DNA of 64,000 bases from Patescibacteria group bacterium (GTDB lineage: Bacteria > Patescibacteriota > Patescibacteriia > UBA10025 > JAHIVO01), in the NCBI GenBank assembly GCA_041660605.1, contig JBAZWB010000001.1, positions 265,295 to 329,294 on the forward strand, given 5' to 3'. Below are positions 2,845 through 60,992 of the stretch, in pieces (position 1 is the first letter of the stretch; each line of letters opens with the position of its first letter). The notes beneath the pieces are model-generated. The model was not told the DNA's origin, ran no database searches, and was given only the letters and a program-made list of their open reading frames with translations. The position numbers were made by a program, and so were the translations under genes.

Positions 2845-3196
2845 TAATAGCAGGGGTGGGATTTCCGCGTCTCCTTCGCTTTCGCTCGGGCTCCTTGTCC
2901 TGAGCAGCGCCGAATGCTCCTGATGGTCGCATTCGTCGGCGTTCGTCTGCCCCTTCGGCTCCGCTCAGGGTTGCCTCACTTCTGCTCGTTCGAATCCCAC
3001 GAGCTTAAAAATATCGTTATGCTTAATAGCAGGGGTGGGATTTCCGCGTCTCCTTCGCTTTCGCTCGGGCTCCTTGTCCTGAGCAGCGCCGAATGCTCCT
3101 GATGGTCGCATTCGTCGACGTTCGTCTGCGCGCTTCGCGCTTGCCTCACTTCTGCTCGTTCGAATCCCACGAGCTTAAAAGTATCGTTATACTTAA
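2845..3196. repeat. two tandem ~187-bp direct repeats; each is a degenerate copy of the tRNA-Met 3' half with a ~111-nt GC-rich palindromic insertion in the T-loop
   Basis: Each unit begins with aatagcaggggtgggatt, identical to the 3' terminal 18 nt of the adjacent tRNA-Met in minus orientation. Each also contains GTGGGATTCGAA (T-stem 5' half plus T-loop) about 130 nt away. Copies differ at a few positions and carry internal hairpins (cgaatgc...gcattcg, gcgcgcttcgcgc). Confidence 0.8.
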
Positions 3197-3270
3197 TAGC
3201 AGGGGTGGGATTCGAACCCACGACCTCGGGCTTATGAGTCCCACGCTCTAACCAACTGAGCTACCCTGCC
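3197..3270 (-). tRNA. tRNA-Met (anticodon CAT; elongator type or tRNA-Ile2 lysidine type)
   Basis: Minus-strand sequence is GGCAGGGTAGCTCAGTTGGTTAGAGCGTGGGACTCATAAGCCCGAGGTCGTGGGTTCGAATCCCACCCCTGCTA. The D-arm is identical to E. coli elongator tRNA-Met. The anticodon loop CTCATAA has U33 and A37. There is a G1-U72 wobble, one A31-G39 mismatch, and no encoded CCA. Confidence 0.8.
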
Positions 3271-3423
3271 GCGTCAGAATCGCACTCCGCCTTCCGTTTC
3301 CAAAATTTTCTGAAAACTGCAGGCTGCGTGCGCTTCTTCCTTTCCTCGTCCGCCCATGGGCGGACTCGGTTTTTAATTTTTTAAATTGTCTGCCTAAATC
3401 AAACTATCGCAGTCAGCAAGGAT

Positions 3424-3498: not shown

Positions 3499-3698
3499 TC
3501 GTCAGAATCGCAGTACGCCATCCGCTTACAAAAGATTTTGTAAGCTGCTGGCTCCCTGCGATTCTTCCTCTCCTCGCAGAAAGCTTCGCTTTCTGCTCGG
3601 TTGTAAGAAATAATTCAGGACTTACTTAGGCGGTAATTTATTATGCGTGTTGGGAATTATAAGGTATTTAATGTATTTACGCAAGCTGGCAAGTTGGG

Positions 3699-3773
3699 TG
3701 GTGCCGCCGGTCGGAGTCGAACCGACATGGGAGTAATCCCACACGATTTTGAGTCCCCGCCATTCGGCGGGGC
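3699..3773 (-). pseudogene. tRNA-like element (75 nt, CCA-encoded) with intact T-arm and 3' acceptor strand but no complementary 5' acceptor strand; chimeric with tRNA-Leu(CAA) segments
   Basis: Minus-strand sequence is GCCCCGCCGAATGGCGGGGACTCAAAATCGTGTGGGATTACTCCCATGTCGGTTCGACTCCGACCGGCGGCACCA. The T-arm GTCGG/TTCGACT/CCGAC and CGGCGGC-A-CCA are canonical. The Leu(CAA) anticodon loop GACTCAAAATCG and a degenerate copy of the Leu T-arm are present, but no GCCGCCG 5' strand could be found. Confidence 0.4.
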
Positions 3774-25751: not shown

Positions 25752-25847
25752 TTTATAAAAAATAGACTTTGGGGTTCGTAGCTCCCCATACCATACTCAC
25801 TTTGTTCGTAGGTACGGGGCAAGCAGTTGACTAGAGCGCCACATTGA

Positions 25848-25956
25848 TCCCTCACCTTCCTCTGCGCGTGTAGCTCAGTTGGTTAGAGCGTCACATTGAC
25901 ATTGTGAAGGTCCCAGGTTCAACTCCTGGCACGCGCATGTAGAGGAAGGTGAGGGA
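25848..25956 (+). repeat. perfect 16-bp inverted repeat bracketing tRNA-Val(GAC)
   Basis: tccctcaccttcctct (25848-25863) directly abuts the tRNA 5' end. Its exact reverse complement agaggaaggtgaggga lies at 25941-25956, 3 nt after the tRNA 3' end. This is a processing-stem-like arrangement. Confidence 0.85.
25864..25937 (+). tRNA. tRNA-Val (anticodon GAC)
   Basis: Sequence is GCGCGTGTAGCTCAGTTGGTTAGAGCGTCACATTGACATTGTGAAGGTCCCAGGTTCAACTCCTGGCACGCGCA. The cloverleaf is canonical, with anticodon loop TTGACAT. Confidence 0.9.
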
Positions 25957-26020
25957 TAAAGGTCAGAGGTTCAACTCCTCTCGGACCCACCAAGGAGCGT
26001 TGCAGATTGATAAAATTTAA

Positions 26021-26158
26021 AGCGGCTCAGTTTCCGCCAAAGGCGGATCAGCCTCTGGCTGAGGTTAGAGCGTCACATTGACACCTGCCCGCAATGCCTT
26101 GCAGCAATGCGTGGCAGGCGGGTTGTGAAGGTCCCAGGTTCAACTCCTGGCACGCGCA
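26021..26158 (+). pseudogene. disrupted tRNA-Val(GAC) copy with 30-nt D-loop insertion and 39-nt insertion between anticodon-loop positions 37/38; no proper 5' acceptor strand
   Basis: The copy matches the intact gene from GCTCAGTT through CACGCGCA, plus 35 nt of identical 3' flank. It carries the insertion tccgccaaaggcggatcagcctctggctga (26033-26062) in the D-loop. It also carries cctgcccgcaatgccttgcagcaatgcgtggcaggcggg (26084-26122) after TTGACA of the anticodon loop. The 5' end reads AAAGCG instead of GCGCGTGTA. Confidence 0.6.
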
Positions 26159-26350
26159 TGTAGAGGAAGGTGAGGGATAAAGGTCAGAGGTTCCTCCGCC
26201 ACAATAAATTAAATAAATTAAAGTAGGGCGGGGTCCCCGCCCACCTGCCTTGCGGCAGCGAGGCTGGCGCGGCGCCTTTGGCGGAAACTCCTCTCGGACC
26301 CACCAGCAATTTAAAAGTTTTTATTATAATTAATCGATTTTTAAAATAAA

Positions 26351-29718: not shown

Positions 29719-32700
29719 ATGGGAGGCAGAAATAAAAATAAATTCATTACGGGGGCGGTTGTAGGATTAATTTTCAGCTTAGCGCTGATAGCTATGGCTG
29801 TTTTTGTCCTGCCAAATGCCGTCTCCGCCCAGGCGACTATTAACAGCGAGCTAGGGACGACTTTTGGTTTGGGCACGGCGGGCCTGGAATCGACAGTAAT
29901 AAAGATCGTCCAGTGGGCGCTCGGCTTCCTCGGGCTGATAGCGGTGATCATGATCATCTACGGCGGCGTGGTTTGGATGACCGCGGCCGGCAACACTGAT
30001 AAGGTAGCTAAGGCCAAGAAAATAATCATCCGCGCGGTGATCGGGCTGGTGATTGTTCTCTTAGCCTGGGCGATCGTCATGTTTATCGTTGACAGGATAA
30101 ATAAAGCCACCGGTGGCGGCGGAGATTTTTGCGATCCTCATTATTTTGGACCAAATTGGCCGGCTGACGCGGAGGTACGCTCGGACGGCTGTGCCTATTG
30201 CAATGAAAGCGGTACCGGCTGGATAGTTATCCCTGGCTGCGTCACTTTGCCGGATACCGACACTTTCCGCGTCAAATGGGTGGATCCGACTGACGGCGAA
30301 CATGACGTGCCTTTGTGCAGCATCGTGCAGGCCAAGTTGAACGGTAAAGTTGTGCCCGCTTCCATCGCTGGTAATGTTGGGCTGTATGTTAACGGTGCCA
30401 CGGCTAAAGGTGGCGATGCGTGTCTTGCCAACAATGAATGCATGTCTGGCGTTTGCGATATTGGCGGCACTAACCAGTGCGTGGGCGATGAAGTCGCCGG
30501 CAACTGGCAGGTTTCACCTGACCAGACAATCATAGAATTTTTACCGGCTACCGATTATCTGGAGAATCAGTGGTACCGGGCGGAATTGAGGAGAAATACC
30601 CCAGGGAATCCGGTTATTATCCAGGAAGACGCCGCTGATCCGCGTGATTTCGTAACTAAAATATGGATGTTTACTACCGGCATTACGACTTTGGATGTGC
30701 CTCCGACCGTGACTACAATATATCCAGCTGATGGTGAAGATAAAATTTGTTTGAACACCGCCATCCAGTCAATATTTTCCAGTAAAATGCGGGCCGCTTC
30801 AATGAACGCCAGTACTATAAAATTGGCTGAGGCCGGGACAGGAGATTACGGAATTAACATTAACGATCATACAAGTAATTCTTTTTCCGGCCGTCCGGCC
30901 AAACTTTTAAACGCCGGTAAAGAGTATAATGTTACTTTAACTGCCGGAGACCCCGGGAATAATGATCCGAATAACGGTGTTATGGACGTTTGTCTGAATC
31001 ATCTTGATGGCGATGCGGATACTGTTGAAGAAGGCACGGCCGGTGGCGATAATTTCCTTGAAACGGTACCGCCAAGCTCCAATCCCACCTTTACGGATGC
31101 GCCCTGGAATTTCTTAGCTGATACTGACACTACCAATGATAAATGCATACCGGAAATAACCGACATTGTGCCGGCTAATGGCAAATATGATAGCACCGCG
31201 GTAGATATACAGGGCGTGAATTTTGGTATTATTGGTTTCACCTATTTTAATAAAGGAGTAATTAATGCAGGGAATTGTTTTGACGGGGGGGGATGGCCTA
31301 GATTAGAATGCGTCAACAGCTGGTCGGGCAATAATATAAACATTCACGTGCCTGGCGGTCCGATCAACGGCGGCCAGAAAGCAGTGCCGTATAACGGCGC
31401 GGCCGATGGGCCGGTATCCGTGGAAGTGGCTGGCAAAACCAGCAACAATTGGACTTTTGACGTAGCCAGCCCGCAAATATTAAAAGCCATCGGCTTTAAA
31501 AACAATCGCCACGGCGGTACTGACCAGTATGTTACCCTGATCAGCCGTTCTGATACTGACGGTGGTTTCGGTGATAATACAGGTACGGTGGTTTTCCGGA
31601 GTTTTCAGCCTCCCTACAATGTGGTTACTGCGCCTTTCCCTCCTGATCCGCCTTGTGACGCCTCCTGGGCTAATGACCAGGTGATTATTAAAGTACCTGA
31701 TCTGACAGCCACGCTAGGCGTTCCCGCTTGCCCGGTGGCCGGACCCGCTGACTGGGTAAGTTGCCTGAATACTCCTTCCATGGTGGGTATTCAGCTTATC
31801 AGGAACGGAGGTGATCGTAGCAATATAGTTAATTTTGTCTATACTAATGAAGAAGCCGGTCCGGGTTTGTGCGCCATTCAGCCGCAGCAATGCGGTACGG
31901 GCGGTGAGACCGTAACTGCGGTGGGCCAGAAATTTCTTGCTCAGACTCCTGCGAGCCGAGTGCATTTTTCCGCCATCCAAGCAGTAATAAATAGCTGGAC
32001 ATTGAACCTGGTGACCGGAGACAGCGCGCAGGTTACTGTGCCAAGCCTTGATAACGCTGAAGATTATCTGGTGACGGTTTCAAATTCCGTTGGCACAAGT
32101 AACCCCTTGCTCTTTGACGTACCGTGCGGCCTGATACCAAAAGTGGTGGAAGATTCCTCCTGCGAAAATTATTGCCAGCTTGATCCTACCCTTAAGGGCT
32201 GTACTGAAGACATAGACTGCGGCGTTTCCGGTCCCTGCGTCACCGGCATTTCCTCGCCAAATCCGTATAAAGGCAATACTGACGTCTGCGTCAATGTTAA
32301 CGCCGCGGCGTCTTTTAATACTCTGATGGACGACGCCATGCTGACTGACGGCAATCTGGTCTATCTGCAGAAATGCAATGATGATAATTGCTCGGATGTG
32401 GATCCGGCCAAGGTGGCAGGCGCTTTGTCGGTATTTATCATTGACCCCACTCACGAAGGCGTTGAGTTCAATCCGGCTGTTAACCTTGATCCCTCAACAA
32501 CATACCAGATGACTATCCAGAAAGAAGTGCAGAGCGAGGCTGGCGCGCACATGAATAATGATTACAAGTGGCATTTCAAAACTAAAGACAGCATTGAACC
32601 CTGCCCGGTGGAGAAAGTGGTAGTTGCTCCGAACAGCGCGATTTTATATAATCTTGGAGACACTCAGAATTATTCCAGCTTAGCCCAAGGTCCGAACTGC

Positions 32701-35700
32701 ACCATCTTAGATCCCAACGACTATACCTGGGCCTGGACTTCGGAGGATTTTGGAATTGCCAGTGTTCCGGTGCCCAGCAGCATAACGCGAAATGAAATCG
32801 CCACCGCTACCGGCCTAGGCACTACTTATATAAAGGCCAGCATTCCCGCGGAAAGCAAGAGCGGCCGGGGCAGGCTGAAAGTTGATCCGGAATCCTGCGC
32901 TTTTAATCCTGATCCTGGTTACTGTGCTAACCCCGGTGGCGGTGTAACCTGTCCAGGCAGCTGGTGCGATTTACTGGCTGACAAATGCATGCCGGTGATT
33001 ACTGAGCGATCCATACCGCCGGATATACCGCCGAAGGAAATCACTCCACCCCAGGGACCAGCGGGCACTACGGTTTCTATTGAAGGCTGCTGGTTTGGCA
33101 GTAAAACCGGTCAGGTGATTATTGACCAGGCAGCAACTTTTGAATGCAGTAATTCCTGGTCAAGTAATTTGATCGTGGCGACTACTGATCCCTTAATTCC
33201 TACTGGTAATAAGCCGGTGGAAGTATTGACAGCTTACGGCCGATGCAACGGCGGCGACAGAGACGGCCGGTTATGCACGGTGGTAGGAGAATGTCCCGGA
33301 GCCGCGTCATGCGATAAATTTTCCAATATGATTGACAGCGGTCAAAGCGGAGCGCTTAGTAAAAATTTTAATGTTACTGACAGATGTTCCGGATATTGCG
33401 ATCCTAACATCAGCCCGGCGGAATTTGCCAATGCTCCTTGCGTTGATGATAGTAATTGCGATAATGTCCCCCTCAGCTGCAAGAAAGTGCTTCCGACCGG
33501 CGGCATACCGGGTATTTGCCCGCCTTTACAGCCGTCTGCGGGACCGGAGCTGACGCATGTATATATTGAAGGCTTTAATCTTTTGCCTGATAACGCGCAG
33601 ACTGTAGATGATTTGGTTTATTATCCACGAGGTAAGTCAGACACTCGTGATGATATAATTTTTTCATATTTGGAAAAATGGACCGGTACGGCTATCGATA
33701 GAAGCCGTGTGCCGGTTGGCGCGGAATCCGGCGCGGTTAACGTGCTGGTGGACAACTGCCCCTCAAATTCTCTGCCTTATGCCGTGACCTGCACTAACAA
33801 CATCCAGTGCGGTACGGGCTGCTGCGCTGATCCCGGCACGGGCCAGAAGATGTGCCTGCCTTTTGATCCATATTGTCTGTCTGGTACCATGCAGCCATGC
33901 CAGATAGAAGAAAATACCGACACTCCGGAATCTCCCGAAAATCCCAACTGCACTTCCGGCCAGATCTGGAATCCGGGTAATTATATGTGTATCAGTACCA
34001 CAGGCGATACTTCTCATGAATTTCCGGCACCGCCAGAAGATGCCACGCATCTATTCGGTACCGACTGCCGCGTGTGCTGCGACGCCAATCCGCCGCAGGT
34101 GTCAGCTTCAGGCTTGACCTGCCGCGCGGACAAAGGCGACTGCAGCGGCACCGAGCGCGGATTGTATTGCGGCTGTGACCCTGCAATTCCCGGCCAATGC
34201 GGAGCGGGCTTCGGCTGCAGCGCCAAAGACACCTGCTGCTATCCGGAACCCGTCATTGATCATGTCATACCTGATCCGTTAGCGGGCAATCTGCTCTGCA
34301 CCAACGTGGTTATCCGGTATTACTTCAATGAAGTCATGGATACGGAGACCATGAATACCGCCAATATTATAGTAACTGATGGCACAGATCCAATCGCCGG
34401 AAAAATAGATATCCATAAAAATAAAAAGGGTTTTGGTTTTGTCGCGGATAAACCGTACACACCCGGCCAGCAGGTGCATATCGAGGTAACGACCAATGTC
34501 AAGAATAAATACGGCGTGGGCATGGCGGGTTCTGATTCCAGGATTTGGACTATTGATCCGGCCGCGTCCCTCTGCGCCATTAACCAGATTGATTTTACGA
34601 TCATTACCACCGGCGCGCCGCCGACTTATGATCCGCCGGACGTGTTTCGCTGCGCCACGGATAATTGCAGCGGAGACATGGATCCCGCGCCGGGTACGGG
34701 CAACGAGCATGGCATCACGGCCTATGCCTATGATAAAAGAGGCCTGGAAGTGGCAGCTACCTATCAGTGGCAAGAAGAAGATGACGCGAATGTTATTGCC
34801 ATTGACCAATTGGCCGTAGGCACTGATAACGCTATCACCGCGCAACCCAATAATGGCAAAGCTAACATAGTAGTGACGGCTACCGAGCAGTACGTTGGCG
34901 ATTCGAAACTAACCGATAAGGCCAGAGTCAGCGTGATGCTGTGCGAAAAACCCTGGCCCAATCCGTATGCGCCGGAAATGGATCAGTTTCCTTTTGAGGA
35001 TTCTGACCGCAATCCGCCGGCTACCTGGAAACCGGACACCATTTTCCATACAAATAATTTTATTGCTAATTACAGCATCTGGTATTGCCGCGATTCCGGC
35101 AATCCGCCTTTATTAGAGCGCACTGATCAGGTAACAGTCCGTGACGGCTCGCCGACGGATCCGGACATAGTCAAGGAATACTTTTTCCTCAGGCCTGGCA
35201 CCAGTACGGACGGCATCGGCATTATTGTCGCCGACAATCCTGATAATAAATCTCCGGAGCAATGGTATCGGGATAAATTCGGCGCGGCCGCACCAGCGCC
35301 CCAGAGTCTGACAGTGGACGGCTATCCGGCGGTCAGAGCCGGCCGTACCGTTTATGTCGGCGTGCCGAACCTGGTAGGCGGAGCATTCCATCAATATATA
35401 TATTTATTATCTCATGACCAGGAGGCTTCAGATGAAACGCTGGATATCTACAACCGCCTGCTGGCCAATTGGGAGTTTAATGTTAATGTTGATCCGGCAC
35501 AAAAGGCAGCTTTGCAGCGCGATTTGCAGAGAATCAATAGCTTGGAGGAAATTTACGGCAAAATGCTGGCTTATAAGAATAAAAATGGCTTTTTCCCCAA
35601 ACTTGAAGGCGGTTCGTATATCCAGCATTTGTCCAATTCCAAATGGCCTTCCTGGCAGGAGACGCTGGGGTCCAGCATTAACAGTCTGGGCTTTATACCG

Positions 35701-38700
35701 CATCAGGCGCCGTTCCTGGAAAAACTACGCGGTTTATTTGTTAAAAACGCGGTCGCCCAATCCGGCCTGGCCGTTGATCCGTTGAATAAATTTGATTTGC
35801 CCGACCCCTCGCTGCCCCCGCAGTGCCTGGAGGACAACGGATTTAACCAGGATACCTGCTGGAATGAAACAAAACATTTGTATGAATGTCCGGCCAATTC
35901 AAATATTTACCAATATATGGTGGATGCCAATGGCGACAATGCCGCGCTCTATGCCCGGATGGAATACAGCGGTGCCGATAGTTTTGCAAATTATTTTGGG
36001 GGCGATCCTTGTACCGGCATAACCGGCGCCACCTGCAACTGCTTTAATTATGTATTGGGCGTAACCGGCAATCTGGCTGATCACGAAGGTCCGGAAATCC
36101 AGGGGGTGGACGCCTTGGGGGCCGGTGTGAACTGGATCAGCAGCACCCGGCCACTGGGCGTGTTAGTCGTTGACAAGCCAGACCTTAATCCCAGCGGCGT
36201 CAACCGGGTGGAATTTTTCGTTGACGGCATTAGGAAATTCACGGACAGCGACGGCACTGGTCCGGGCTGGTCCTGGGATTTCGTTTCCACGCAGTATGCC
36301 GACGGCGACCATAAGATTTCTGTGACTGCCTACGATAATGTTGGTAACTGGACCACGAAAAATTATGACATTAAAATCGACAATTCCAGCGGAGCGGATA
36401 CTACCGATCCCTTCATCGCCATCGCCCGGCCGGGAAACGGCGCTTCGGTCAGCGGCAAAGTCATCATTGAAGCGCAGGCCAGCGATAACCAGGTGCTGGC
36501 GCAGGTGCAGATTTCAGTTGAGGGCGCTTCGGCTAACTGGGTCTGTCCTGGCGGCGGTTCAAGCATGACCTGTACGACAGCCATCCCGAATCACTGGAAC
36601 ACCGCAGCACTTGACGCTGATGGCAAATATATCTATCCCAATGGCGAATATACCATCAACGCCACGGCCACAGACGCAGCCGGCAACAGCCGCACTGCCA
36701 GCATAAAAGTGAAAGTAGCCAACAGCGATTATACCGCACCATCCGTTGTTTTGACCGCGATATATAACGGCGGTCCGGATCATTGGAATAATGGAGATGT
36801 CATACCTGGCGCTATTGCGTACGCCCAGGGTCCGGGCGAGGTGTGGGTCTGGGTGATACCTACTGACGACCAGGGGGCTGACCAGTTCTACAAGCCCGGT
36901 CGCGTGAAATTCTACGTTGATGGCATCTATCGCGCTGACGGGTCAAATGATAATGGCGACCAGGTGTGGGAATGGGCGCCATGGAACACCCTGGAATACT
37001 CCAACGGACTGCATGAACTGACCGTCTATGTTTATGACGACGCGGGCAATATGGCCAGCGATACCTGGTATATTACGCTGAATAACGCTCAGTCAGACAT
37101 GGAACCGCCGGTAGTTAATTTTAGAAATGCCAAATCCAATCCAACAGGGAGAACGCTTTTAAATGGCCAGCCAGCTACGCAAATCATATATATTGATGCC
37201 AGCGCTTCAGATAATATCGGCGTTACAAAAGTTTATTTTTATCGCGATTATATATTGCGATCCGAGGTCATTGTTCCGGATCCAATGACAGGCTACTCCT
37301 GGATGGTTGATACTAATGCAATTTCGCCGGGTTGGCATACTTTTCAGGTGGACGCGGAAGACGCGGCGGGAAACCGCAGCGACGCCATTGAGATACGCCT
37401 GAATATCGGCGGCGGCGGCGCTCCAATTTGCGGCGACGGCATCATTACCAACTTTACTGTTCCGCCGGAACAGTGCGAGCTGATCGGCTACACCCCGCCG
37501 CCTGATAATCAGCCTATTTACAGCATGAACGGCGAGACCTGTAAAACATTGGGCTATGGCTGCGGCACCCTGGGATGCAATCCGCCCCTCTCCGCTAATG
37601 AGTGCCAGTTTGATGTTAGCCAATGCAAAAACTCCGTTTGCGGTGACGGTAAGATCGAGTGCGGCGAAACCTGTGAAAGTGTATCGGACTGCCCGGCCGC
37701 GCCTAATGCTTGTTCTACTATTAATTGCAATAGTTGCGACTGCTCTTACGATCAGAATTGCACCAACGCGCCGGGGTGCGAGCCTGGTACCCTTACCTGG
37801 TGCGCCAACTGCAACCACTGCAACAATAAGATCAAGGATTGCGATGAAACAACCACGGATTGTGGCGGCGCCATGTGCCCGACCTGCGGATGCACGCCAG
37901 GAAACCAGCGATGTACAGTAACCTCACAGACGCAGGTCTGCAATAACCTCGGCGTCTGGGTAAATGAAGCGCAAACCCTGCCTACCTGTACTGCCCCGCC
38001 TAGTTATCCTTTCTGGCAGGGCGATTGTAATTTGGGCTCAACATCAGGTTGCTATTCTGGCACTGTTTGTAAAACCTCGGGAGCTACCGATGCTCACTGC
38101 GAAAGTAATCAGGCCATACAATGTACTGCAGCCTGCCAGACTGGTTGGTCACTGGCTTATAACCAGTGTTGCGTCACCCAGCGATGTAATACCGGCCCAC
38201 CTCTACACACGGAGAAATTTGTAAGCGGTTCCTGGGTTGATGAACCCCAGGGTACACCAATTTGCAGTATGGCCAATGGGGCCAATTGGGATGGAAATTG
38301 TGTTATGGGTAATAGCTGCTACAACACTACAATCGGTTGTATGATGACTGGCGGCGGAACAGATGCTAAGTGCGTGAATACAAGCGTCAACCCATTCCAA
38401 TGCGTGGCCGCTTGCCAGAGTTCATTTCTAGCCGCGTATAACCAATGCTGCGCCGTATGCGTTGACGGCACAAAGCAGGATTGCGGCGCTACGAATACTG
38501 ATGTTGGCGAATGCAATATCGGCGAGCAGACCTGCGTCAGCGGCGCCTGGGGACCCTGTACCGGCGAAATTCCTTCGTCGCCGGAAATTTGCACTGGCGG
38601 CAAGGATGAGGACTGCGACGGCGCTATTGATGCTGCGGATACGGATTGCGCCATGCAGTGCAATCAAGCCTGCAACCCGCCCAGTATAAATTGCGCCAGC

Positions 38701-39771
38701 CCCTTGATCTGCAGCAGCGGTTTATGCCGCAACAGCGCCTGCCCTCTCCAAACTGATTGTATTTGCCCTACTATTCTATATACTATTACGCTGACCTGGA
38801 GCGGGACCACGGATCTTGACCTCAATTTATTGAGAAGCGATCTCAAGCGCTGGTACTGGGGGCACCCTGACATTGATGAAGGCATAGATTGGAATAATAT
38901 TAACTCTAATACGGAGGTTATAGAAATAACTGCAGAACAAAGCAGTTATCCTAACGATTTTCAAATACTCATACAGAATAGCGCCGTACCAACAGCGATG
39001 ATCCCCAGCGGTACGAGGGTGGATATTATGGATAATATACGCAGTTTGACTTATACTTATAATTCTCCGGATATGTGCCGCAGCAACAGCAGTCCTATCT
39101 GGCAGGTCGGTGAATTTAATTTCAGTGGTGGCGTTACACCAAATGTCAGCAATGCCTATATGCCCGCGCCTTTCCCGGCCACTTATCCCAGCGTGCCATA
39201 TCAGCAAGCTTCAGGCTCTTGCTGCGCTAATATAACCCAATGTCAGTCAGGGCTCTGCTGTAATGGTGGCTCGCCAGGTGTCTGCGGCGCCTGCTCCTCT
39301 TGTTTTGCTAACAATGGTTCCTGCGAAGTGGCACCGGGTTATTCCTGTGATGAGGTGAAGGACTATAGTGATCCGGATAATAAAGACTGCAAACAGAATT
39401 TTATAGATTGCAAAACTTGGTGTAGCGATAATTATTGCGACAGCATGGGAAATTGCACTGGATTTCTGGTCAGGATGACATATCCGGTTGCGACATATCA
39501 ATATGAACCGGGGAAATGCTATGATCCGTGGAGAAGCGGTGACCCTCAGGATCAATGTTATATTAGTATGGCTTGTGGCGGATATGCTTTTTATGGGCCG
39601 AATAATGAAGCGACGCAATGTTGCCACCCAGCCTCGACTAATCCACCTGGAACTCCGCTTGGTTATGGATGTTATTGCGGACGCGATGTACCGGTTGGCC
39701 CGCCTGTGGATCCAAATCCAGAATGTTTAATCGCCAGTTGCAATGGTCCGAACCTATATGTTTGCGAATAA
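29719..39771 (+). CDS. giant (3350 aa) Cys-rich cell-surface protein; N-terminal VirB2/TrbC pilin-like membrane domain, central Ig/beta-rich region, C-terminal Cys-rich repeats
   Basis: The single uninterrupted ORF is GC-richer than its neighbours. The N-terminus has a signal-anchor plus two hydrophobic helices split by a short basic loop (IYGGVVWMTAAGNTDKVAKAKKIIIRAVIGLVIVL). The C-terminal ~700 aa hold CGDG cysteine-rich repeats, CDGxDxDCDG-type motifs and a ~91-aa Cys-rich unit repeated about 2.5 times (DNA ~37900-38480). Antisense ORFs inside the gene are spurious. Confidence 0.9.
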   Translation: MGGRNKNKFITGAVVGLIFSLALIAMAVFVLPNAVSAQATINSELGTTFGLGTAGLESTVIKIVQWALGFLGLIAVIMIIYGGVVWMTAAGNTDKVAKAKKIIIRAVIGLVIVLLAWAIVMFIVDRINKATGGGGDFCDPHYFGPNWPADAEVRSDGCAYCNESGTGWIVIPGCVTLPDTDTFRVKWVDPTDGEHDVPLCSIVQAKLNGKVVPASIAGNVGLYVNGATAKGGDACLANNECMSGVCDIGGTNQCVGDEVAGNWQVSPDQTIIEFLPATDYLENQWYRAELRRNTPGNPVIIQEDAADPRDFVTKIWMFTTGITTLDVPPTVTTIYPADGEDKICLNTAIQSIFSSKMRAASMNASTIKLAEAGTGDYGININDHTSNSFSGRPAKLLNAGKEYNVTLTAGDPGNNDPNNGVMDVCLNHLDGDADTVEEGTAGGDNFLETVPPSSNPTFTDAPWNFLADTDTTNDKCIPEITDIVPANGKYDSTAVDIQGVNFGIIGFTYFNKGVINAGNCFDGGGWPRLECVNSWSGNNINIHVPGGPINGGQKAVPYNGAADGPVSVEVAGKTSNNWTFDVASPQILKAIGFKNNRHGGTDQYVTLISRSDTDGGFGDNTGTVVFRSFQPPYNVVTAPFPPDPPCDASWANDQVIIKVPDLTATLGVPACPVAGPADWVSCLNTPSMVGIQLIRNGGDRSNIVNFVYTNEEAGPGLCAIQPQQCGTGGETVTAVGQKFLAQTPASRVHFSAIQAVINSWTLNLVTGDSAQVTVPSLDNAEDYLVTVSNSVGTSNPLLFDVPCGLIPKVVEDSSCENYCQLDPTLKGCTEDIDCGVSGPCVTGISSPNPYKGNTDVCVNVNAAASFNTLMDDAMLTDGNLVYLQKCNDDNCSDVDPAKVAGALSVFIIDPTHEGVEFNPAVNLDPSTTYQMTIQKEVQSEAGAHMNNDYKWHFKTKDSIEPCPVEKVVVAPNSAILYNLGDTQNYSSLAQGPNCTILDPNDYTWAWTSEDFGIASVPVPSSITRNEIATATGLGTTYIKASIPAESKSGRGRLKVDPESCAFNPDPGYCANPGGGVTCPGSWCDLLADKCMPVITERSIPPDIPPKEITPPQGPAGTTVSIEGCWFGSKTGQVIIDQAATFECSNSWSSNLIVATTDPLIPTGNKPVEVLTAYGRCNGGDRDGRLCTVVGECPGAASCDKFSNMIDSGQSGALSKNFNVTDRCSGYCDPNISPAEFANAPCVDDSNCDNVPLSCKKVLPTGGIPGICPPLQPSAGPELTHVYIEGFNLLPDNAQTVDDLVYYPRGKSDTRDDIIFSYLEKWTGTAIDRSRVPVGAESGAVNVLVDNCPSNSLPYAVTCTNNIQCGTGCCADPGTGQKMCLPFDPYCLSGTMQPCQIEENTDTPESPENPNCTSGQIWNPGNYMCISTTGDTSHEFPAPPEDATHLFGTDCRVCCDANPPQVSASGLTCRADKGDCSGTERGLYCGCDPAIPGQCGAGFGCSAKDTCCYPEPVIDHVIPDPLAGNLLCTNVVIRYYFNEVMDTETMNTANIIVTDGTDPIAGKIDIHKNKKGFGFVADKPYTPGQQVHIEVTTNVKNKYGVGMAGSDSRIWTIDPAASLCAINQIDFTIITTGAPPTYDPPDVFRCATDNCSGDMDPAPGTGNEHGITAYAYDKRGLEVAATYQWQEEDDANVIAIDQLAVGTDNAITAQPNNGKANIVVTATEQYVGDSKLTDKARVSVMLCEKPWPNPYAPEMDQFPFEDSDRNPPATWKPDTIFHTNNFIANYSIWYCRDSGNPPLLERTDQVTVRDGSPTDPDIVKEYFFLRPGTSTDGIGIIVADNPDNKSPEQWYRDKFGAAAPAPQSLTVDGYPAVRAGRTVYVGVPNLVGGAFHQYIYLLSHDQEASDETLDIYNRLLANWEFNVNVDPAQKAALQRDLQRINSLEEIYGKMLAYKNKNGFFPKLEGGSYIQHLSNSKWPSWQETLGSSINSLGFIPHQAPFLEKLRGLFVKNAVAQSGLAVDPLNKFDLPDPSLPPQCLEDNGFNQDTCWNETKHLYECPANSNIYQYMVDANGDNAALYARMEYSGADSFANYFGGDPCTGITGATCNCFNYVLGVTGNLADHEGPEIQGVDALGAGVNWISSTRPLGVLVVDKPDLNPSGVNRVEFFVDGIRKFTDSDGTGPGWSWDFVSTQYADGDHKISVTAYDNVGNWTTKNYDIKIDNSSGADTTDPFIAIARPGNGASVSGKVIIEAQASDNQVLAQVQISVEGASANWVCPGGGSSMTCTTAIPNHWNTAALDADGKYIYPNGEYTINATATDAAGNSRTASIKVKVANSDYTAPSVVLTAIYNGGPDHWNNGDVIPGAIAYAQGPGEVWVWVIPTDDQGADQFYKPGRVKFYVDGIYRADGSNDNGDQVWEWAPWNTLEYSNGLHELTVYVYDDAGNMASDTWYITLNNAQSDMEPPVVNFRNAKSNPTGRTLLNGQPATQIIYIDASASDNIGVTKVYFYRDYILRSEVIVPDPMTGYSWMVDTNAISPGWHTFQVDAEDAAGNRSDAIEIRLNIGGGGAPICGDGIITNFTVPPEQCELIGYTPPPDNQPIYSMNGETCKTLGYGCGTLGCNPPLSANECQFDVSQCKNSVCGDGKIECGETCESVSDCPAAPNACSTINCNSCDCSYDQNCTNAPGCEPGTLTWCANCNHCNNKIKDCDETTTDCGGAMCPTCGCTPGNQRCTVTSQTQVCNNLGVWVNEAQTLPTCTAPPSYPFWQGDCNLGSTSGCYSGTVCKTSGATDAHCESNQAIQCTAACQTGWSLAYNQCCVTQRCNTGPPLHTEKFVSGSWVDEPQGTPICSMANGANWDGNCVMGNSCYNTTIGCMMTGGGTDAKCVNTSVNPFQCVAACQSSFLAAYNQCCAVCVDGTKQDCGATNTDVGECNIGEQTCVSGAWGPCTGEIPSSPEICTGGKDEDCDGAIDAADTDCAMQCNQACNPPSINCASPLICSSGLCRNSACPLQTDCICPTILYTITLTWSGTTDLDLNLLRSDLKRWYWGHPDIDEGIDWNNINSNTEVIEITAEQSSYPNDFQILIQNSAVPTAMIPSGTRVDIMDNIRSLTYTYNSPDMCRSNSSPIWQVGEFNFSGGVTPNVSNAYMPAPFPATYPSVPYQQASGSCCANITQCQSGLCCNGGSPGVCGACSSCFANNGSCEVAPGYSCDEVKDYSDPDNKDCKQNFIDCKTWCSDNYCDSMGNCTGFLVRMTYPVATYQYEPGKCYDPWRSGDPQDQCYISMACGGYAFYGPNNEATQCCHPASTNPPGTPLGYGCYCGRDVPVGPPVDPNPECLIASCNGPNLYVCE

Positions 39772-58052: not shown

Positions 58053-58403
58053 ATGTTTAGATTTGAGACATTGGAAATTTGGAAAGAGGCGATAATTTTT
58101 GTGAATAAAATTTATCTCACTACTGAAAAAAACTTTCCGAAACATGAGTTATATGCTCTCACAAGCCAAGTGCGAAGAGCAGCGATATCTGTTTCTGCGA
58201 ATATCGCCGAAGGCTCGGCTAATGACAGTATAAGGGGTTTCAAATTATTTTTGAATTACAGCATCCGTTCTTTAGTGGAAGTAATTTCTGAGCTCTATAT
58301 TGCAAGAGATAGAGAGTATATAAATAATCAAGATTTTAACTCCCTATATTTAAATGCTGAAGTACTAGTTAAGAGGATAACTTGTTTTAAAAAAAGTTTA
58401 TAG
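58053..58403 (+). CDS. four-helix-bundle protein (23S rRNA intervening-sequence protein family)
   Basis: 116-aa ORF with N-terminal FETLEIWKEAIIFVNKIY and SANIAEGS. The family is recalled from memory as the four-helix-bundle proteins found within 23S rRNA intervening sequences. Confidence 0.8.
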   Translation: MFRFETLEIWKEAIIFVNKIYLTTEKNFPKHELYALTSQVRRAAISVSANIAEGSANDSIRGFKLFLNYSIRSLVEVISELYIARDREYINNQDFNSLYLNAEVLVKRITCFKKSL

Positions 58404-58434: not shown

Positions 58435-59940
58435 ATGAGAAAACTATCAAAATCAAAAATTTTCCTATACAGCAGCCTGGCTTTTATCTTTGGCGTGGCT
58501 ATTCGGTCGTTAATAAATATTCCTATGTGGCTGGCGCTGACGTTCGGGTCGGCAGGAATAATTATGCTAATTTGGCGGGTAAAAATTTTATGGAGAGTCT
58601 GCGCGATTTGTCTGCTGATGATTTCCTGCGGCATTTTCAGGTACCAGATGTCGATTCCGCATAATAATAATTCAAGCGTTCAGCATTTTAATAACCAAAA
58701 AGCCAGTTTTATTGCATTGATTACAACTGAGCCGGATACCAGGAAGGATCACGTGAAACTGGCCGTTGAAATAAAAAAAGGTTTAGATAATATTCCAGCA
58801 GCAGTGCAGGGTAAAGTGTTAATTAACGCAACATTATATCCGGAACACCATTATGGAGATTTGTTGCAGATTGATTGCCGGCTGCAGGCGCCGGAGCCGA
58901 TAAAAGACGAGGAATCAGGCAGGATTTTTAATTACGACAAATATCTAGCCCGCTATGACATTTATTCCATATGTTATCGGCCGGGCATCAAGCTTCTAGC
59001 TGCTGACCAGGGTAATATTCTTTTAGCCGCCCTTTTGTCAGTTAAAAATAAGTTTGTTCAATCTATCCAGCTATCCCTGCCAGAACCGCAGGCTTCTTTT
59101 CTCGGCGGGCTGGTCCTGGGCGCGAAGAGGGCGATTCCCGACGATTTGATGGAAAGTTTCGCTCGTACAGGCACTACGCATATCGTGGCTTTATCGGGCT
59201 ACAACATTACAATTATTGCTGTTTTAATTTCAAATCTGTGCAAGCACCTGTGGATTTCCAGAAAAAAAGCTTTTTGGGTGTCTGCGGCGGCTATCGCCTT
59301 TTTCGTTTTAATCACCGGCGCGCAGGCCTCAGTCGTCAGGGCGGGGATTATGGGCATGCTGGTTTTACTGGCTACCCAGATGGGGCGCCTGAGCCGGATC
59401 ACCAATGTGTTAATTTTGGCAGCAGTAATAATGTTACTGGTGAATCCGAAGGTCTTGGTTTTTGATGCCGGATTTCAATTGTCTTTTTTGGCGACCGTGG
59501 GGCTTGTTTATGTGTCGCCAATTGTTAAAAGATTTTTTAATTGGCTGCCGGACTTTTTCCAAATCAGGGAAAATTTGGTGGCCACCCTCTCTGCCACTTT
59601 AATGACATTGCCTTTGATAATTTTTCAGTTTGGACGCCTGTCTTTAGTGGCTCCGCTGGTGAATGTTTTAATCCTGCCGGCTATTCCTATTGCTATGGGC
59701 TTTGGTTTTGTCATGGGGTTACTGGCGCTGATCTGGCTGCCGTTGGGGCCGGTGTTCGGCTGGATAGTCTGGTCAATTTTGAGTTATATAATTTTTATAG
59801 TTAATAGTTTTGCCAAGTTAAACTTCGTGGCTTTTGAATTTGGCCAAGTCAGATGGCTCTGGCTGGCGCTAGGCTATGGGTTTTTAACATTAATATTATT
59901 CAAAGCCAGAAAATCAGAAGCCAGTATGATTAAAGTGTAA
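58435..59940 (+). CDS. comEC: ComEC/Rec2 DNA internalization channel (DUF4131 + competence domain; no beta-lactamase domain)
   Basis: 501-aa polytopic membrane protein with the competence-domain motifs (GTTHIVALSGYNITII, GFQLSFLAT). Confidence 0.8.
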   Translation: MRKLSKSKIFLYSSLAFIFGVAIRSLINIPMWLALTFGSAGIIMLIWRVKILWRVCAICLLMISCGIFRYQMSIPHNNNSSVQHFNNQKASFIALITTEPDTRKDHVKLAVEIKKGLDNIPAAVQGKVLINATLYPEHHYGDLLQIDCRLQAPEPIKDEESGRIFNYDKYLARYDIYSICYRPGIKLLAADQGNILLAALLSVKNKFVQSIQLSLPEPQASFLGGLVLGAKRAIPDDLMESFARTGTTHIVALSGYNITIIAVLISNLCKHLWISRKKAFWVSAAAIAFFVLITGAQASVVRAGIMGMLVLLATQMGRLSRITNVLILAAVIMLLVNPKVLVFDAGFQLSFLATVGLVYVSPIVKRFFNWLPDFFQIRENLVATLSATLMTLPLIIFQFGRLSLVAPLVNVLILPAIPIAMGFGFVMGLLALIWLPLGPVFGWIVWSILSYIIFIVNSFAKLNFVAFEFGQVRWLWLALGYGFLTLILFKARKSEASMIKV

Positions 59941-59948
59941 ATAATTTT

Positions 59949-60992
59949 ATGCCAAACAGATTCATTTCAAAAAAAATATTTATATGCTTATTTGGTTTGT
60001 TAACAGTTTGTTGTCTATTGTTTGCGCTGGTCTGGCAAAGCGAACAAAATAAAAATCTAAAGATAATATTTTTTGATATCGGCCAGGGAGACAGCATTTA
60101 CATCCGCACGCCCTCGCAGCAGGACATATTGATAGACGGCGGGTCGGATTCCGGAGTCCTGGCAAAACTGGGGCGGGCCATGCCGTTCTATGACCACACG
60201 ATTGACCTAATGGTATTGACGCACGCCCACGCGGATCACGTGGCCGGATTAGTTGAAGTGCTGAAACGTTATAAGGTGCGGAAGGTTTTATACAGCGGAG
60301 TGGAGGATTCAGCGCCGGAATTTCTGGAATGGGAGCGGTTGATAAATGAAAAAGGCGTTGAAATGACCATTGCCAAGGCTGGCCAGGAATTTATTTTTGA
60401 TCAAGCGGGCATGAAAGTTTTATATCCAACTGAAGATTTAAGGCAGAATAAATTTGACGACTTAAACGAGACTTCAATAGTTACACAGCTGGTTTACCAG
60501 AACACCTCGTTTTTATTCACCGGCGACGCGCCGGTAAAAGTAGAAAAGGGTTTGTTGGAATTCTATCAGCAGCTCGGGTCAGGAGTTTTAAATATCGCTG
60601 AAGCGAGCCCGCCCGCCTTGCTCACGCCTGCATCGACTTCGTCGATACGAAGTCGGGCAGGTCGCAACGCGAAGCGGGCGGGGGCTTCAGCGTACCCTTT
60701 GGAAGGGGCTCCAGCAAACCCGCTAAAGAGTGATGTTCTGAAAGTCGGGCACCATGGGAGTAAATATTCCTCTTCGCTGGAATTTCTCCAAGCTGTTGAC
60801 CCGCAGTACGCGGTGATTCAGGTGGGAAAGGATAATAAATTCGGGCATCCGCATGAGCAGGTCGTTAAAAGATTAAATGGATTGGGCTTTAATGTTTTAA
60901 GAAATGATCTTGAAGGAGACATTACCATGGAGTCCGATGGCGATAATATTCTATTGACAGATAAGAATGATAGTGTTAATATCATCAGATAA
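59949..60992 (+). CDS. MBL-fold metallo-hydrolase (ComEC C-terminal-domain-like) with a ~40-aa in-frame insertion
   Basis: 347-aa ORF with HAHADH and a downstream HHGS. The insertion VLNIAEASPPALLTPASTSSIRSRAGRNAKRAGASAYPLEGAPANPL sits between QQLGSG and KSDVLKVGHHG. Confidence 0.8.
   Translation: MPNRFISKKIFICLFGLLTVCCLLFALVWQSEQNKNLKIIFFDIGQGDSIYIRTPSQQDILIDGGSDSGVLAKLGRAMPFYDHTIDLMVLTHAHADHVAGLVEVLKRYKVRKVLYSGVEDSAPEFLEWERLINEKGVEMTIAKAGQEFIFDQAGMKVLYPTEDLRQNKFDDLNETSIVTQLVYQNTSFLFTGDAPVKVEKGLLEFYQQLGSGVLNIAEASPPALLTPASTSSIRSRAGRNAKRAGASAYPLEGAPANPLKSDVLKVGHHGSKYSSSLEFLQAVDPQYAVIQVGKDNKFGHPHEQVVKRLNGLGFNVLRNDLEGDITMESDGDNILLTDKNDSVNIIR
60596..60715 (+). repeat. GC-rich nested-palindrome insertion inside the MBL hydrolase coding sequence (in frame)
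   Basis: gcccgcccgc pairs with gcgggcgggg as outer arms; cgacttcg-tcgata-cgaagtcg forms the inner hairpin. About 65% GC within a ~45% GC gene. Confidence 0.5.

Follow-up and report, generated by a model that had tools for sequence, protein, structure and literature searches.

A 75-nt palindromic repeat inside a REP-like hairpin in the stand-alone metallo-beta-lactamase gene of a split ComEC in Patescibacteria

The split ComEC locus and the anatomy of the palindrome

The window, by which the whole analysed stretch of 64 kb is meant, carries all three modules of ComEC/Rec2 (OB/DUF4131, competence channel, and metallo-beta-lactamase (MBL) nuclease), distributed over two adjacent open reading frames (Table 1). 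The channel ORF, whose start is placed at 58435 or 58525 depending on the gene caller, matches positions 8-385 of the 663 positions of the TIGR00361 profile, and the MBL ORF matches positions 418-606 and continues into a tail. Neither ORF alone reaches the equivalog cutoff of 190 bits (90.4 and 121.9 bits). In the MBL half, the motifs HxHxDH, TGD, and HHGS are retained, as is the membrane helix that precedes it, and residues 14-194 and 258-332 align with solved ComEC chains. The Pfam and TIGR00361 matches thus bear out the first-pass annotation, in which ComEC was described as a channel gene followed by a separate MBL gene. The split is real but not special to the present genome, as it is the standard arrangement in nearly all CPR bacteria (PMC6744442) and a stand-alone MBL protein of 273-321 aa was found in 119 of 119 non-self homologues among the best 120 listed. 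In five relatives, the two halves are parted by an intervening gene. Annotation of such a split ComEC as a pseudogene would be wrong.

Table 1. Features of the ComEC locus and of the palindrome in the MBL gene (positions in the window)
Feature	Position	Strand	Remarks
ComEC channel subunit gene	58435..59940	+	501 aa; DUF4131/OB domain (PF13567) and Competence domain (PF03772), without MBL domain
Gene for a stand-alone ComEC-type MBL nuclease that has an N-terminal membrane helix of its own	59949..60992	+	347 aa; Lactamase_B (PF00753)
Orphan arm CTCGGGTCA-GGA, the left side of a second REP-like hairpin whose matching right arm is missing	60573..60584	+	Resemblance to P0002
Left arm of the REP-like hairpin, CGCTGAAGC	60596..60604	+	Inverted repeat, 100% complementary; homologous to the P0013, P0021, and P0005 hairpins
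GAG, first three bases of the ancestral GAGG tetraloop	60605..60607	+	Uninterrupted GAGG in P0013, P0021, and P0005
75-nt GC-rich imperfect palindromic repeat, CCCGCCCGC...GCGGGCGGG, 25 codons, within the tetraloop	60608..60682	+	blastn copies, covariance model, fold
G, final base of the ancestral GAGG tetraloop	60683..60683	+	Comparison with orthologue hairpins
Right arm of the REP-like hairpin, GCTTCAGCG	60684..60692	+	Pairs with CGCTGAAGC
Conserved 3' tail TACCC	60693..60697	+	GGGTAC on the opposite strand, a degenerate form of the REP GTAG tag
Small adjoining hairpin CCCTT-TGG-AAGGG	60695..60707	+	Seen in folds

Within the MBL gene, three complementary pairs lie between 60596 and 60692, in agreement with the nested inverted repeats noted at first. 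Besides the arms of the outer hairpin, these are the pair CCCGCCCGCCTTGC/GCGAAGCGGGCGGG inside the 75-nt unit (60608-60621 and 60669-60682) and the innermost pair CGACTTCGT/ACGAAGTCG (60634-60642 and 60647-60655). The GC content computed for 60600-60719 is 0.658, compared with 0.46 for the whole window, so that the reported value of about 65% holds. A palindrome is indeed present where one of 120 nt (60596-60715) had been described, but the hairpin proper covers 97 nt (60596-60692) and the unique insert exactly 75 nt. Similarly, the segment is inserted relative to orthologues, but not as one insertion: it consists of two layers, an older, shared hairpin and the 75-nt element in its loop. The RNA fold of 60580-60730 has a free energy of -80.9 kcal/mol (z = -7.5; not equalled by any of 200 shuffles), and the DNA folds of the 97-nt hairpin and of the 75-nt element alone give z = -6.7 and z = -6.4, respectively; no other 120-nt fold in the window is as stable as that of the 97-nt hairpin. 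The orphan arm upstream is identical in 9 of 9 nt to the left arm of the P0002 hairpin (CTCGGGTC-AAGT-GACCCAAG) and is located at homologous codons. An origin of the palindrome as an MDA or assembly artefact was considered and ruled out: two assemblers gave an identical MBL gene in two independent assemblies, and the arms are not copied from the flanks.

The insert has a length divisible by three and contains no stop in the frame of the gene, which therefore stays open, as had been claimed. The GD...HHG segment of the gene is 76 residues long, whereas 26-28 residues is the commonest length among 120 homologues; among the best 120 listed, 99 of the 119 that could be parsed have a segment of 26-28 residues. 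The metagenome loci that served as background are, among the matches listed, relatives of 30-43% identity and not close orthologues. In the AF2 model (overall pLDDT 84.7), residues 3-33 form a helix and the MBL fold is confident except at residues 220-253, where pLDDT falls below 50; the alignment with solved ComEC structures extends to either side of the loop and skips it. The insert is thus predicted to be disordered on the surface of the fold. The odd 50-residue low-complexity loop of this nuclease would then stem from the insertion of a DNA repeat and should not be taken for a functional domain.

The REP-like hairpin in related genomes

The outer hairpin occurs at the same codons in all eight loop-bearing orthologues examined, although its stem sequences and the encoded peptides differ. 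The stem in the window is 9 bp long and perfectly paired (9/9), with the GAGG loop interrupted; the stems of the orthologues are 8-10 bp long and closed by RRGG loops. Over 11 aligned copies, 92.7% of stem cells are paired, compared with 48% at most in slid controls, and double changes occur in 8 of 10 pairs. The covariation in the same copies is 0.83, compared with 0.31 after shuffling, and none of 500 shuffles was as high. The hairpin is followed by ACCC on its 3' side in 9 of the 11 copies. According to published criteria, REPs have a stem of 5-13 bp, a loop of 2-20 nt, and an unpaired GTAG or degenerate tag, degenerate tags being accepted in published families (PMC3733652). GTAG is present on the opposite strand in four of nine MBL-gene hairpins (P0002, P0003, P0021, and P0028) and in both copies within the L004 RAYT gene described below; elsewhere the tag reads GTAC (window), GTGG (P0006), GTAA (P0005), or GTCG (P0013).

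The type of hairpin is incongruent with the protein tree. Between the sisters P0006 and P0013, protein identity is 75% but only 14 of 24 hairpin nucleotides agree; between P0013 and the window, protein identity is 59% but 18 of 24 agree. The hairpin was lost in P0004 and P0008, close relatives of P0005. P0004 was considered as a pristine empty site and rejected, since a left-arm-like AAGCCAGCAG remains in its loop, which identifies it as a deletion derivative. P0010 has about 30 additional nt in the same loop, among them a 14-nt tandem duplication. Searches of the 64-kb window, of the 7 kb that adjoin it, and of some 20 kb of L213 gave no further copy of the hairpin, and L004 contains three hairpins within 8.9 kb. 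Such hairpins are rare in the sampled DNA, and the repetitive character that belongs to the definition of REPs is therefore unproven.

The related loci also carry homologues of RAYT, the REP-associated tyrosine transposase (Y1/HUH), which adjoin the ComEC/MBL genes in five of nine of them (L003, L004, L087, L090, and L213). With NF047646, for which the cutoff is 80 bits, the RAYT of L004 scores 115.6 bits and that of L003 105.4 bits; the copies in L087 and L090 are truncated by contig ends. The RAYT gene of L004 contains an in-frame double hairpin of 66 nt, one unit of which is identical in 25 of 27 nt to the MBL-loop hairpin of another genome. By sequence resemblance, the hairpin seems to belong to a small family that is also found inside the neighbouring transposase gene. 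In L213, the RAYT contains stop codons and is decayed, and half of the MBL hairpin is deleted. This joint decay and the incongruence between hairpin type and gene tree can be regarded as indirect hints at RAYT mobilisation. No RAYT was found in the window or in 7 kb beyond it (best tblastn match in the window, E = 9), and none of the best 120 RAYT matches listed lies on a contig of 960,449 bp, the length of the source contig.

The inner 75-nt element

A second copy of the 75-nt core was found outside the window, in two groundwater contigs that represent one locus, so that the element is known from two loci in all, the window included. The blastn alignment with L211:1373-1447 shows 92% identity and that with L212:740-814 shows 90.7% (E = 8e-24). 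Both alignments cover exactly bases 1-75 of the element and the flanks are unrelated; the ends deduced from the interrupted tetraloop match the ends of this similarity exactly, although the flanking G and C runs blur them by 1-2 nt. The same ends at unrelated loci (window 60608-60682, L211, and L212) are what is expected of a MITE-like element. Since the similarity ends at the ends of the element, L211 and L212 are not apparently assembly chimeras with a fragment of the MBL gene of the window. The other copy lies in reverse orientation and in a different frame in the tail of another gene, and in L211 it is not obviously in a hairpin loop. The termini of the element are the inverted repeats CCCGCCCGC/GCGGGCGGG. 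No target-site duplication can be seen, as the window reads GAG|...|G and the flanks in L211 are different, and neither a GTAG/CTAC tag nor a transposase was identified for the element.

With the covariance model R1, which was built from three sequences including the window copy, this copy scores 103.8 bits. No further copies were found in the window by blastn-short and inverted-repeat scans, and there were no matches of the core in viral contigs. The six-frame peptide search with the element returned only the self match and P0121, and when the minus-frame peptide was compared by HMMER with 1.84 billion representatives, low-complexity or repeat proteins were the only matches. The 18-mer CCCGCCCGCCTTGCTCAC has at least 119 genome matches; all those listed are in unrelated GC-rich genomes, in ordinary coding sequence without the hairpin, many of them in one conserved gene. 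It is a GC-biased word and a weak probe, and the source genome is absent among the matches listed.

The proposed sharing of motifs with the tRNA-loop insertions elsewhere in the window did not withstand comparison with shuffled sequences (Smith-Waterman local alignments, z <= 2). CTTGCTCAC is found at the MBL site alone, and GCCCGCC occurs 16 times on both strands, scattered over the window. In the R1 scan, an anticodon-loop insert (26084-26122) leads the non-self matches with 20.8 bits (E = 0.056); a 98-kb control of unrelated CPR loci gives up to 18.8 bits, and a link through the covariance model is at best suggestive. The excess of CCGCC...GGCGG pairs (27 compared with 3.6) was obtained with a control that destroyed dinucleotide and codon structure and is not relied on. 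A broader proposal, which we consider improbable, is that the 75-nt unit, perhaps together with the GC-rich hairpins in tRNA-like genes, represents a class with specificity for pre-existing DNA hairpins, into whose apical single-stranded loops it integrates, or else that the RAYT-comEC-MBL arrangement reflects a working link between an HUH nuclease and DNA uptake. The targets of such a class would include the REP tetraloop and the anticodon (position 37/38) and T loops of tRNA, giving rise to recursively nested palindromes. These would survive since the helix is merely lengthened, and RNA genes would need an excision step.

Origin of the palindrome and comparison with known systems

The feature is probably tolerated, nested selfish palindromic DNA, which lies in frame in a functional gene at a site encoding a permissive surface loop. 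The first layer, a REP-like hairpin whose stem of 9-10 bp is closed by an RRGG tetraloop and followed by ACCC (the GTAG-type tag on the other strand), keeps the same codon position in the MBL gene across the whole of the closest Patescibacteria subclade, where RAYT acting on extruded single-stranded hairpins may mobilise, maintain, or replace it. The second layer, the 75-nt GC-rich miniature palindrome, would have entered the single-stranded hairpin tip in the lineage of the window, converting GAGG to GAG|G, which suggests an insertion targeted to the loop. The insert would survive because it is a multiple of three in length, free of stops, and placed on the protein surface between the TGD and HHGS metal-binding motifs. 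The ribosome would read through it, producing a disordered loop of about 34 residues rich in Ala, Ser, Pro, and Arg that leaves the fold intact, and the insert is presumably neutral.

It is also conceivable, but unlikely, that the hairpin is a functional cis element kept by the host, either an mRNA structure governing stability, processing, or translation pausing of an exported nuclease, or a DNA site for a RAYT-like HUH protein, and that the 75 nt extends this structure. Compensatory changes keep the stem across proteins 50-79% identical while the peptide is free to vary, and covariation this strong could signal a host function and not mere selfishness. The hairpin of the window is perfectly paired with no RAYT nearby, and RAYT, comEC, and MBL are syntenic in the five loci named above. 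Against this stand the listed homologues with the 26-28-residue segment, most of which lack the longer loop, so that the hairpin is dispensable, as well as its loss from P0004 and P0008. The swaps of hairpin type, independent of the gene tree, look like turnover of an element, and the 75-nt unit recurs in the unrelated context of L211. In addition, Rfam and terminator scans at the hairpin gave no family match (best Rfam E not below 0.7) and no terminator-like tail, and G-U and A-C departures from pairing occur on both strands, leaving no clear RNA-strand signature.

Growth of the palindrome in situ, by template switching or hairpin-primed synthesis at an older short inverted repeat and with no mobile element involved, is very unlikely. 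Ancestors already had a short hairpin at the site, and the addition in P0010 with its tandem duplication looks like local slippage. However, this explanation does not predict exactly 75 nt, 92% identical, at an unrelated locus with unrelated flanks, and is largely refuted by it; moreover, the arms of the element are imperfect (three internal loops or bulges), where a fresh template switch would be expected to give a perfect complement.

Also very unlikely is an intervening sequence that never appears in the protein owing to RNA excision or ribosome bypass, comparable to the phage T4 gene 60 gap and the mitochondrial byp elements. The very stable GC-rich hairpin within a coding region fits this idea, as do the GC-rich hairpin inserts in tRNA-like genes of the window, including the hairpin-bearing copies at 25753-26312, from which the inserts would need to be removed for function. 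Nevertheless, the sequence gives no hint of removal from the mRNA: the frame is preserved without an in-frame stop, and frame and length are as expected for read-through. The orthologous hairpins and the addition in P0010 are all multiples of three, a constraint that applies only to a translated segment. No Rfam match better than E = 0.7 and no intron, intein, or take-off/landing features were found, an insert of 25-34 codons is too short for an intein, and intragenic REPs elsewhere are taken as translated (PMC3733652). The least probable explanation, a variable protein surface loop shaped by protein-level forces with incidental DNA symmetry, can invoke the range of the TGD-HHGS loop across the family (26 to 76 residues, with other insertions in several unrelated lineages), but is contradicted by the fold z scores of -6.7 to -7.5, the perfect Watson-Crick pairing with synonymous positions included, the stem covariation (0.83 vs. 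0.31), and the DNA-level copy of the element, reversed and in another frame, in the tail of another gene.

If the reading as tolerated selfish DNA is correct, then REP/RAYT-type palindromic DNA extends into Patescibacteria, and in these gene-dense genomes of about 1 Mb the elements appear to persist mainly in coding sequence at permissive loops, the transposase's own gene included. An intragenic hairpin that can be traced across diverged genomes through covariation and type turnover also bears on whether REPs are kept up by selection or by the transposase. No major concept is changed, since both intragenic REPs and the palindromic elements of Rickettsia provide established precedents.

The closest known systems are the GTAG REPs and REPINs with RAYT of E. 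coli, Pseudomonas, and others (PMC3733652; Bertels and Rainey, 2011, PMC3116915), for which cases are on record both of REPs lying in frame within genes and of REPs nested inside small palindromes (Di Nocera et al., 2013, PMC3733652). The likeness includes the 9-10 bp stem, the 4-nt loop, the unpaired end tag (GTAG on the opposite strand in the four MBL-gene hairpins mentioned), an inverted doublet next to or inside the RAYT gene (here in L004), and sub-families with complementary stem changes. The differences concern the host, as Patescibacteria are absent from the survey (PMC3733652), and the copy number, which is very small in the sampled DNA, whereas known REPs number tens to hundreds. They also include one orthologous intragenic site held across genomes, the degenerate tag of the window (GTAC), and the lack of RAYT within 71 kb.

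Rickettsia palindromic elements (RPEs) are palindromic repeats located in frame in protein genes of a small genome and translated as surface segments that leave the host protein intact. RPE-1, RPE-4, and RPE-6 are cited in the REP survey (PMC3733652). The likeness to RPEs is one of behaviour only, an in-frame intragenic palindrome, with no sequence relationship known. RPEs are high-copy within one genome, whereas the 75-nt unit is known from two loci and lies inside another palindrome. The insertion sequences IS1397 and ISKpn1 use the apical loop of REP hairpins as their integration site and are full-length elements with a transposase gene. Here too the apical loop of a REP-like hairpin would have received another element, but the insert is a 75-nt non-coding palindrome without a known mobilising enzyme. 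Finally, full-length ComEC/Rec2 (30bt_A, 9vc6_A, TIGR00361) has the same three modules in one polypeptide, whereas here they are encoded on two, and the loop between residues 194 and 258 exceeds that of the solved ComEC chains (30bt_A, 9vc6_A) by about 50 residues.

The split comEC locus

The first-pass annotation had reported that ComEC is divided between a channel gene and a gene for its metallo-beta-lactamase (MBL) nuclease half. Two genes are indeed present: the channel ORF lacks the MBL domain and covers only positions 8-385 of 663 in the ComEC/Rec2 model TIGR00361, and the MBL ORF, which starts 8 nt past the channel stop (59941-59948 between), covers positions 418-606 and the C-terminal part. 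The MBL protein has an N-terminal membrane helix of its own, and two stretches of its sequence (residues 14-194 and 258-332) align with full-length ComEC chains of solved structure. However, the arrangement is not peculiar, as all 119 non-self proteins among the best 120 of 7,358 scored homologues are stand-alone (273-321 aa). ComEC was described as separate polypeptides in nearly all CPR bacteria (Méheust et al., PMC6744442); the split is ordinary and already known there. In five loci of other genomes (L003, L004, L087, L088, L213), the MBL gene has an opposite-strand fructose-bisphosphatase (FBPase) gene upstream, and in those with the channel gene on the contig (L003, L004, L213) it separates the two halves; it is absent between the window's channel and MBL genes. 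Since gene order on both sides is common to the window and L213 (GCA_964592105.1), its most syntenic genome, the adjacency in the window reflects a missing FBPase gene and not recent fission. An identical MBL protein is present in a 'Patescibacteria group bacterium' MAG (NCBI, ENA, JGI; 960,449-bp contig). An assembly artefact is unlikely because an independent Logan assembly carries an identical MBL gene. Genes of the PF05635 '23S rRNA intervening-sequence protein' family (four-helix bundle) flank comEC in the window and the MBL gene in L088.

Coordinates and sequences of the features (window positions unless prefixed by a locus of another genome; P-handles in this table are homologous MBL proteins)
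Feature	Coordinates	Strand	Description
ComEC channel ORF	58435-59940	+	501 aa; DUF4131 and Competence domain matches
MBL ORF	59949-60992	+	347 aa; Lactamase_B match
PF05635 gene	58053-58403		directly upstream of comEC
PF05635 gene	L088:2686-3138		directly downstream of MBL gene
75-nt element	60608-60682		25 codons
Element copy	L211:1373-1447		92% identity, E = 8e-24
Element copy	L212:740-814		90.7% identity
P0006 hairpin			GGACGGGTC-AAGG-GACCCGTCC
P0003 hairpin			GGACAGGTC-AGGG-GATCTGTCC
P0028 hairpin			GCCTAGGTC-AAGG-GACCCAGGC
P0002 hairpin			CTCGGGTC-AAGT-GACCCAAG
P0013 hairpin			GGCCGAAGC-GAGG-GCTTCGGCC
P0005 hairpin			AGCCGCAGC-GAGG-GTTGCGGCT
P0021 hairpin			GTCAAAGC-GAGG-GCTTTGGT
P0010 hairpin	L003:4633-4666 (extra nt)		GACAGGTC...GACCTGTC; ~30 extra nt in loop
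Hairpin doublet in RAYT gene	L004:915-985		GGGGGTA-GGCGAGGTC-CCTT-GACCTCGCC-GAAGAAC-GGCCTGGGTC-AAGG-GACCCAGGC-TACCTGG
Hairpins in RAYT gene	L003:~640-1000		~330 nt, CTAC-tagged
RAYT and MBL sites	L213:6608-7054 and 10001-10861		
3,350-aa ORF	29719-39771		folding 120-nt windows, e.g., 34036-34155, 36091-36210
tRNA-Val(gac)	25863-25938		between 23-nt inverted repeats 25841-25863 and 25941-25963
Hairpin in Val duplicate	26084-26122		39 nt, anticodon-loop positions 37/38
Insert in Val duplicate	26193-26287		95 nt, outer T loop; contains GTAG-GGCGGGG-T-CCCCGCCC
tRNA-Met	3197-3270	-	partly duplicated downstream; whole region 2990-3275
Insert in Met duplicate	3043-3160	-	~113 nt GC-rich, T loop
Other GC-rich hairpins between the tRNA genes	3348-3365, 3504-3565, 3755-3772		

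Two layers in the MBL-gene palindrome

An in-frame 120-nt nested palindrome had been proposed for 60596-60715. The nesting was borne out by three inverted repeats, together covering 60596-60692, and by folding: the RNA of 60580-60730 reaches -80.9 kcal/mol (z = -7.5), the 97-nt hairpin folded as DNA gives z = -6.7, and the region is the most stable fold of all 120-nt windows across the 64 kb. Its GC content is 0.66 (60600-60719) versus 0.46 for the window. Several of the most GC-rich, strongly folding 120-nt windows of the 64 kb lie in a single 3,350-aa ORF. Most MBL homologues have 26-28 residues between GD and HHG; members of a subclade whose loops are bracketed by Cys have 35-43, and the window's protein has 76. 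The matching gap in solved ComEC is ~14 residues. The AlphaFold2 model shows a normal MBL fold (mean pLDDT 84.7, pTM 0.83) with pLDDT < 50 at residues 220-253, which correspond to the 75-nt element and the right arm of the hairpin, and the HxHxDH, TGD and HHGS motifs are intact.

DNA was compared for all eight loop-bearing close orthologues, picked on loop length, and a hairpin was found at the same codons in 8/8, with ACCC directly 3' in all except P0010 (7/8). Despite differences in the encoded peptides (DGSRDPS, AEARASA, AAARVAA, VKARALV), stem pairing is retained even at synonymous positions. In an 11-sequence alignment, 92.7% of cells are paired (slid controls, <= 48%), double-sided changes occur in 8/10 stem pairs, and the covariation score is 0.83 versus 0.31 in shuffles, 0/500 of which reach 0.83. 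The window's outer stem is a P0013-type hairpin (CGCTGAAGC-GAG[...]G-GCTTCAGCG-TACCC), with the extra sequence between GAG and G of the tetraloop. Judged by this comparison, the palindrome is two-layered: a hairpin shared with orthologues and a 75-nt insert in its loop. The proposed insertion is thus real relative to orthologues, but its unique part is 75 nt and the outer hairpin is shared. The same hairpin tip has expanded in frame a second time, independently, in P0010, whose extra nucleotides include a tandem duplication of 14 nt (CTCGGCCCTGAAGG x2). Hairpin type is incongruent with the protein tree: P0006 and P0013 (75% protein identity) share 14/24 hairpin nt, P0021 and P0003 (71%) 13/24, and P0013 and the window (59%) 18/24, a mismatch that points to replacement or concerted turnover, not slow vertical drift.

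When all six reading frames of the 75-nt unit were used as protein queries, the sole match besides self was a DUF559 protein (P0121), whose C-terminal tail (...PARFALRPARLRIDEVDAG.SKAGG) is a minus-strand frame of the element. The DNA alignments to its loci L211 and L212 (the latter from a Rifle-type groundwater metagenome) span exactly element bases 1-75 between unrelated flanks, and the similarity ends at the boundaries deduced independently from the interrupted tetraloop. On comparative grounds, the insert is a discrete repeated element. Its arms are imperfect, it lacks a GTAG/CTAC tag, and no target duplication is visible. The DUF559 domain of the L211 protein stops at residue 120, and the element copy is contained in a hairpin-rich 3' ORF extension, in opposite orientation and another frame than the window copy. 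At L211:1240-1340, the extension also has a further hairpin (CCCCTCCTA-CGC-TAGGAGGGG) and its CCCCTCCTA motif recurs, a pattern suggestive of several kinds of palindromic unit clustered together.

REP-like hairpins, transposase genes and tRNA-like sequences

On the opposite strand, most hairpin copies read GGGTAG-stem, GTAG being the defining tag of one REP super-family (PMC3733652); the window copy has a degenerate form, GTAC. L004 has a gene that reaches 115.6 bits with the NF047646 model 'REP-associated tyrosine transposase' (RAYT; cutoff 80), and this gene contains an in-frame 66-nt inverted hairpin doublet. Of the two units in the doublet, one matches the hairpin in the MBL loop of another genome (L091) at 25/27 nt. 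RAYT homologues also adjoin ComEC/MBL genes in L003, L087, L090 and L213. The L003 gene (105.4 bits, cutoff 80) carries in-frame hairpins at the same internal position as in L004, so the transposase's coding sequence hosts its presumed substrates. In L213, the RAYT gene upstream of comEC is a pseudogene (in-frame stops, HUH motif missing), and only a left-arm-like remnant survives of the MBL hairpin; gene and hairpin seem to have degenerated in parallel. Among the best 120 of 1,324 RAYT homologues, the annotated taxa are Patescibacteria, Parcubacteria or related candidate taxa, bar four (Stahlbacteria, Dehalococcoidia, Zixibacteria and an unclassified bacterium). No RAYT was found in the window's own 71 kb (the 64-kb window and 7 kb beyond). 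High copy number is a defining trait of REPs; no other hairpin of the MBL-loop kind was found in the window or in about 20 kb of L213, and REP-typical copy number is therefore unproven.

Duplicated tRNA-like sequences are interrupted by GC-rich hairpins at three sites (table), and motif sharing of the MBL insertion with tRNA-loop insertions had also been noted. This similarity proved not significant: local alignments gave z <= 2, and the best non-self match of a 75-nt-element covariance model (26084-26122, both ends matched) scored 20.8 bits (E = 0.056), with unrelated CPR DNA reaching 18.8 bits. Kinship is a lead only. The tRNA-Val(gac) gene looks to lie inside a second, interrupted tRNA-like gene (region 25753-26312), whose 3' end (...AGAGGTTCAACTCCTCTCGGACCCACCA) falls at ~25955-25992 and whose 5' acceptor strand may be the GGGTTCG in a ggggttcg run near 25782-25789. 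The partial duplicate that follows it probably has a D-loop insert too; ARAGORN and Rfam called only two intact Val genes at 25753-26312. The T arm, 3' end and trailer of tRNA-Met are likewise duplicated.

Nested palindromic DNA and known systems

Nested selfish palindromic DNA in the MBL gene is the best-supported reading. It is proposed that a REP-like hairpin was resident in a permissive loop and that a 75-nt miniature palindromic element would later have inserted in its tip; mobilisation would be by RAYT, insertion would be targeted to loops, and the insert would be translated. Both layers may have been kept because the frame is preserved and the position is on the protein surface. The main rival, a host function of the hairpin, is allowed by the strong stem covariation, but the hairpin is absent from most MBL homologues, was lost in P0004 and P0008, and turns over in type. 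In-situ growth of the palindrome is contradicted by the 75-nt copy at an unrelated locus (L211/L212), an ordinary protein loop by stem covariation, and RNA-level removal of the insert by the orthologue hairpin comparison. As for nested selfish DNA, Rickettsia palindromic elements, REPs lying in frame within genes and REPs nested in palindromes have all been described before; new are the phylum of the host, an orthologous intragenic site that stays fixed while hairpin types turn over, REP-like inserts in the RAYT coding sequence, and the 75-nt element family, at two loci so far.
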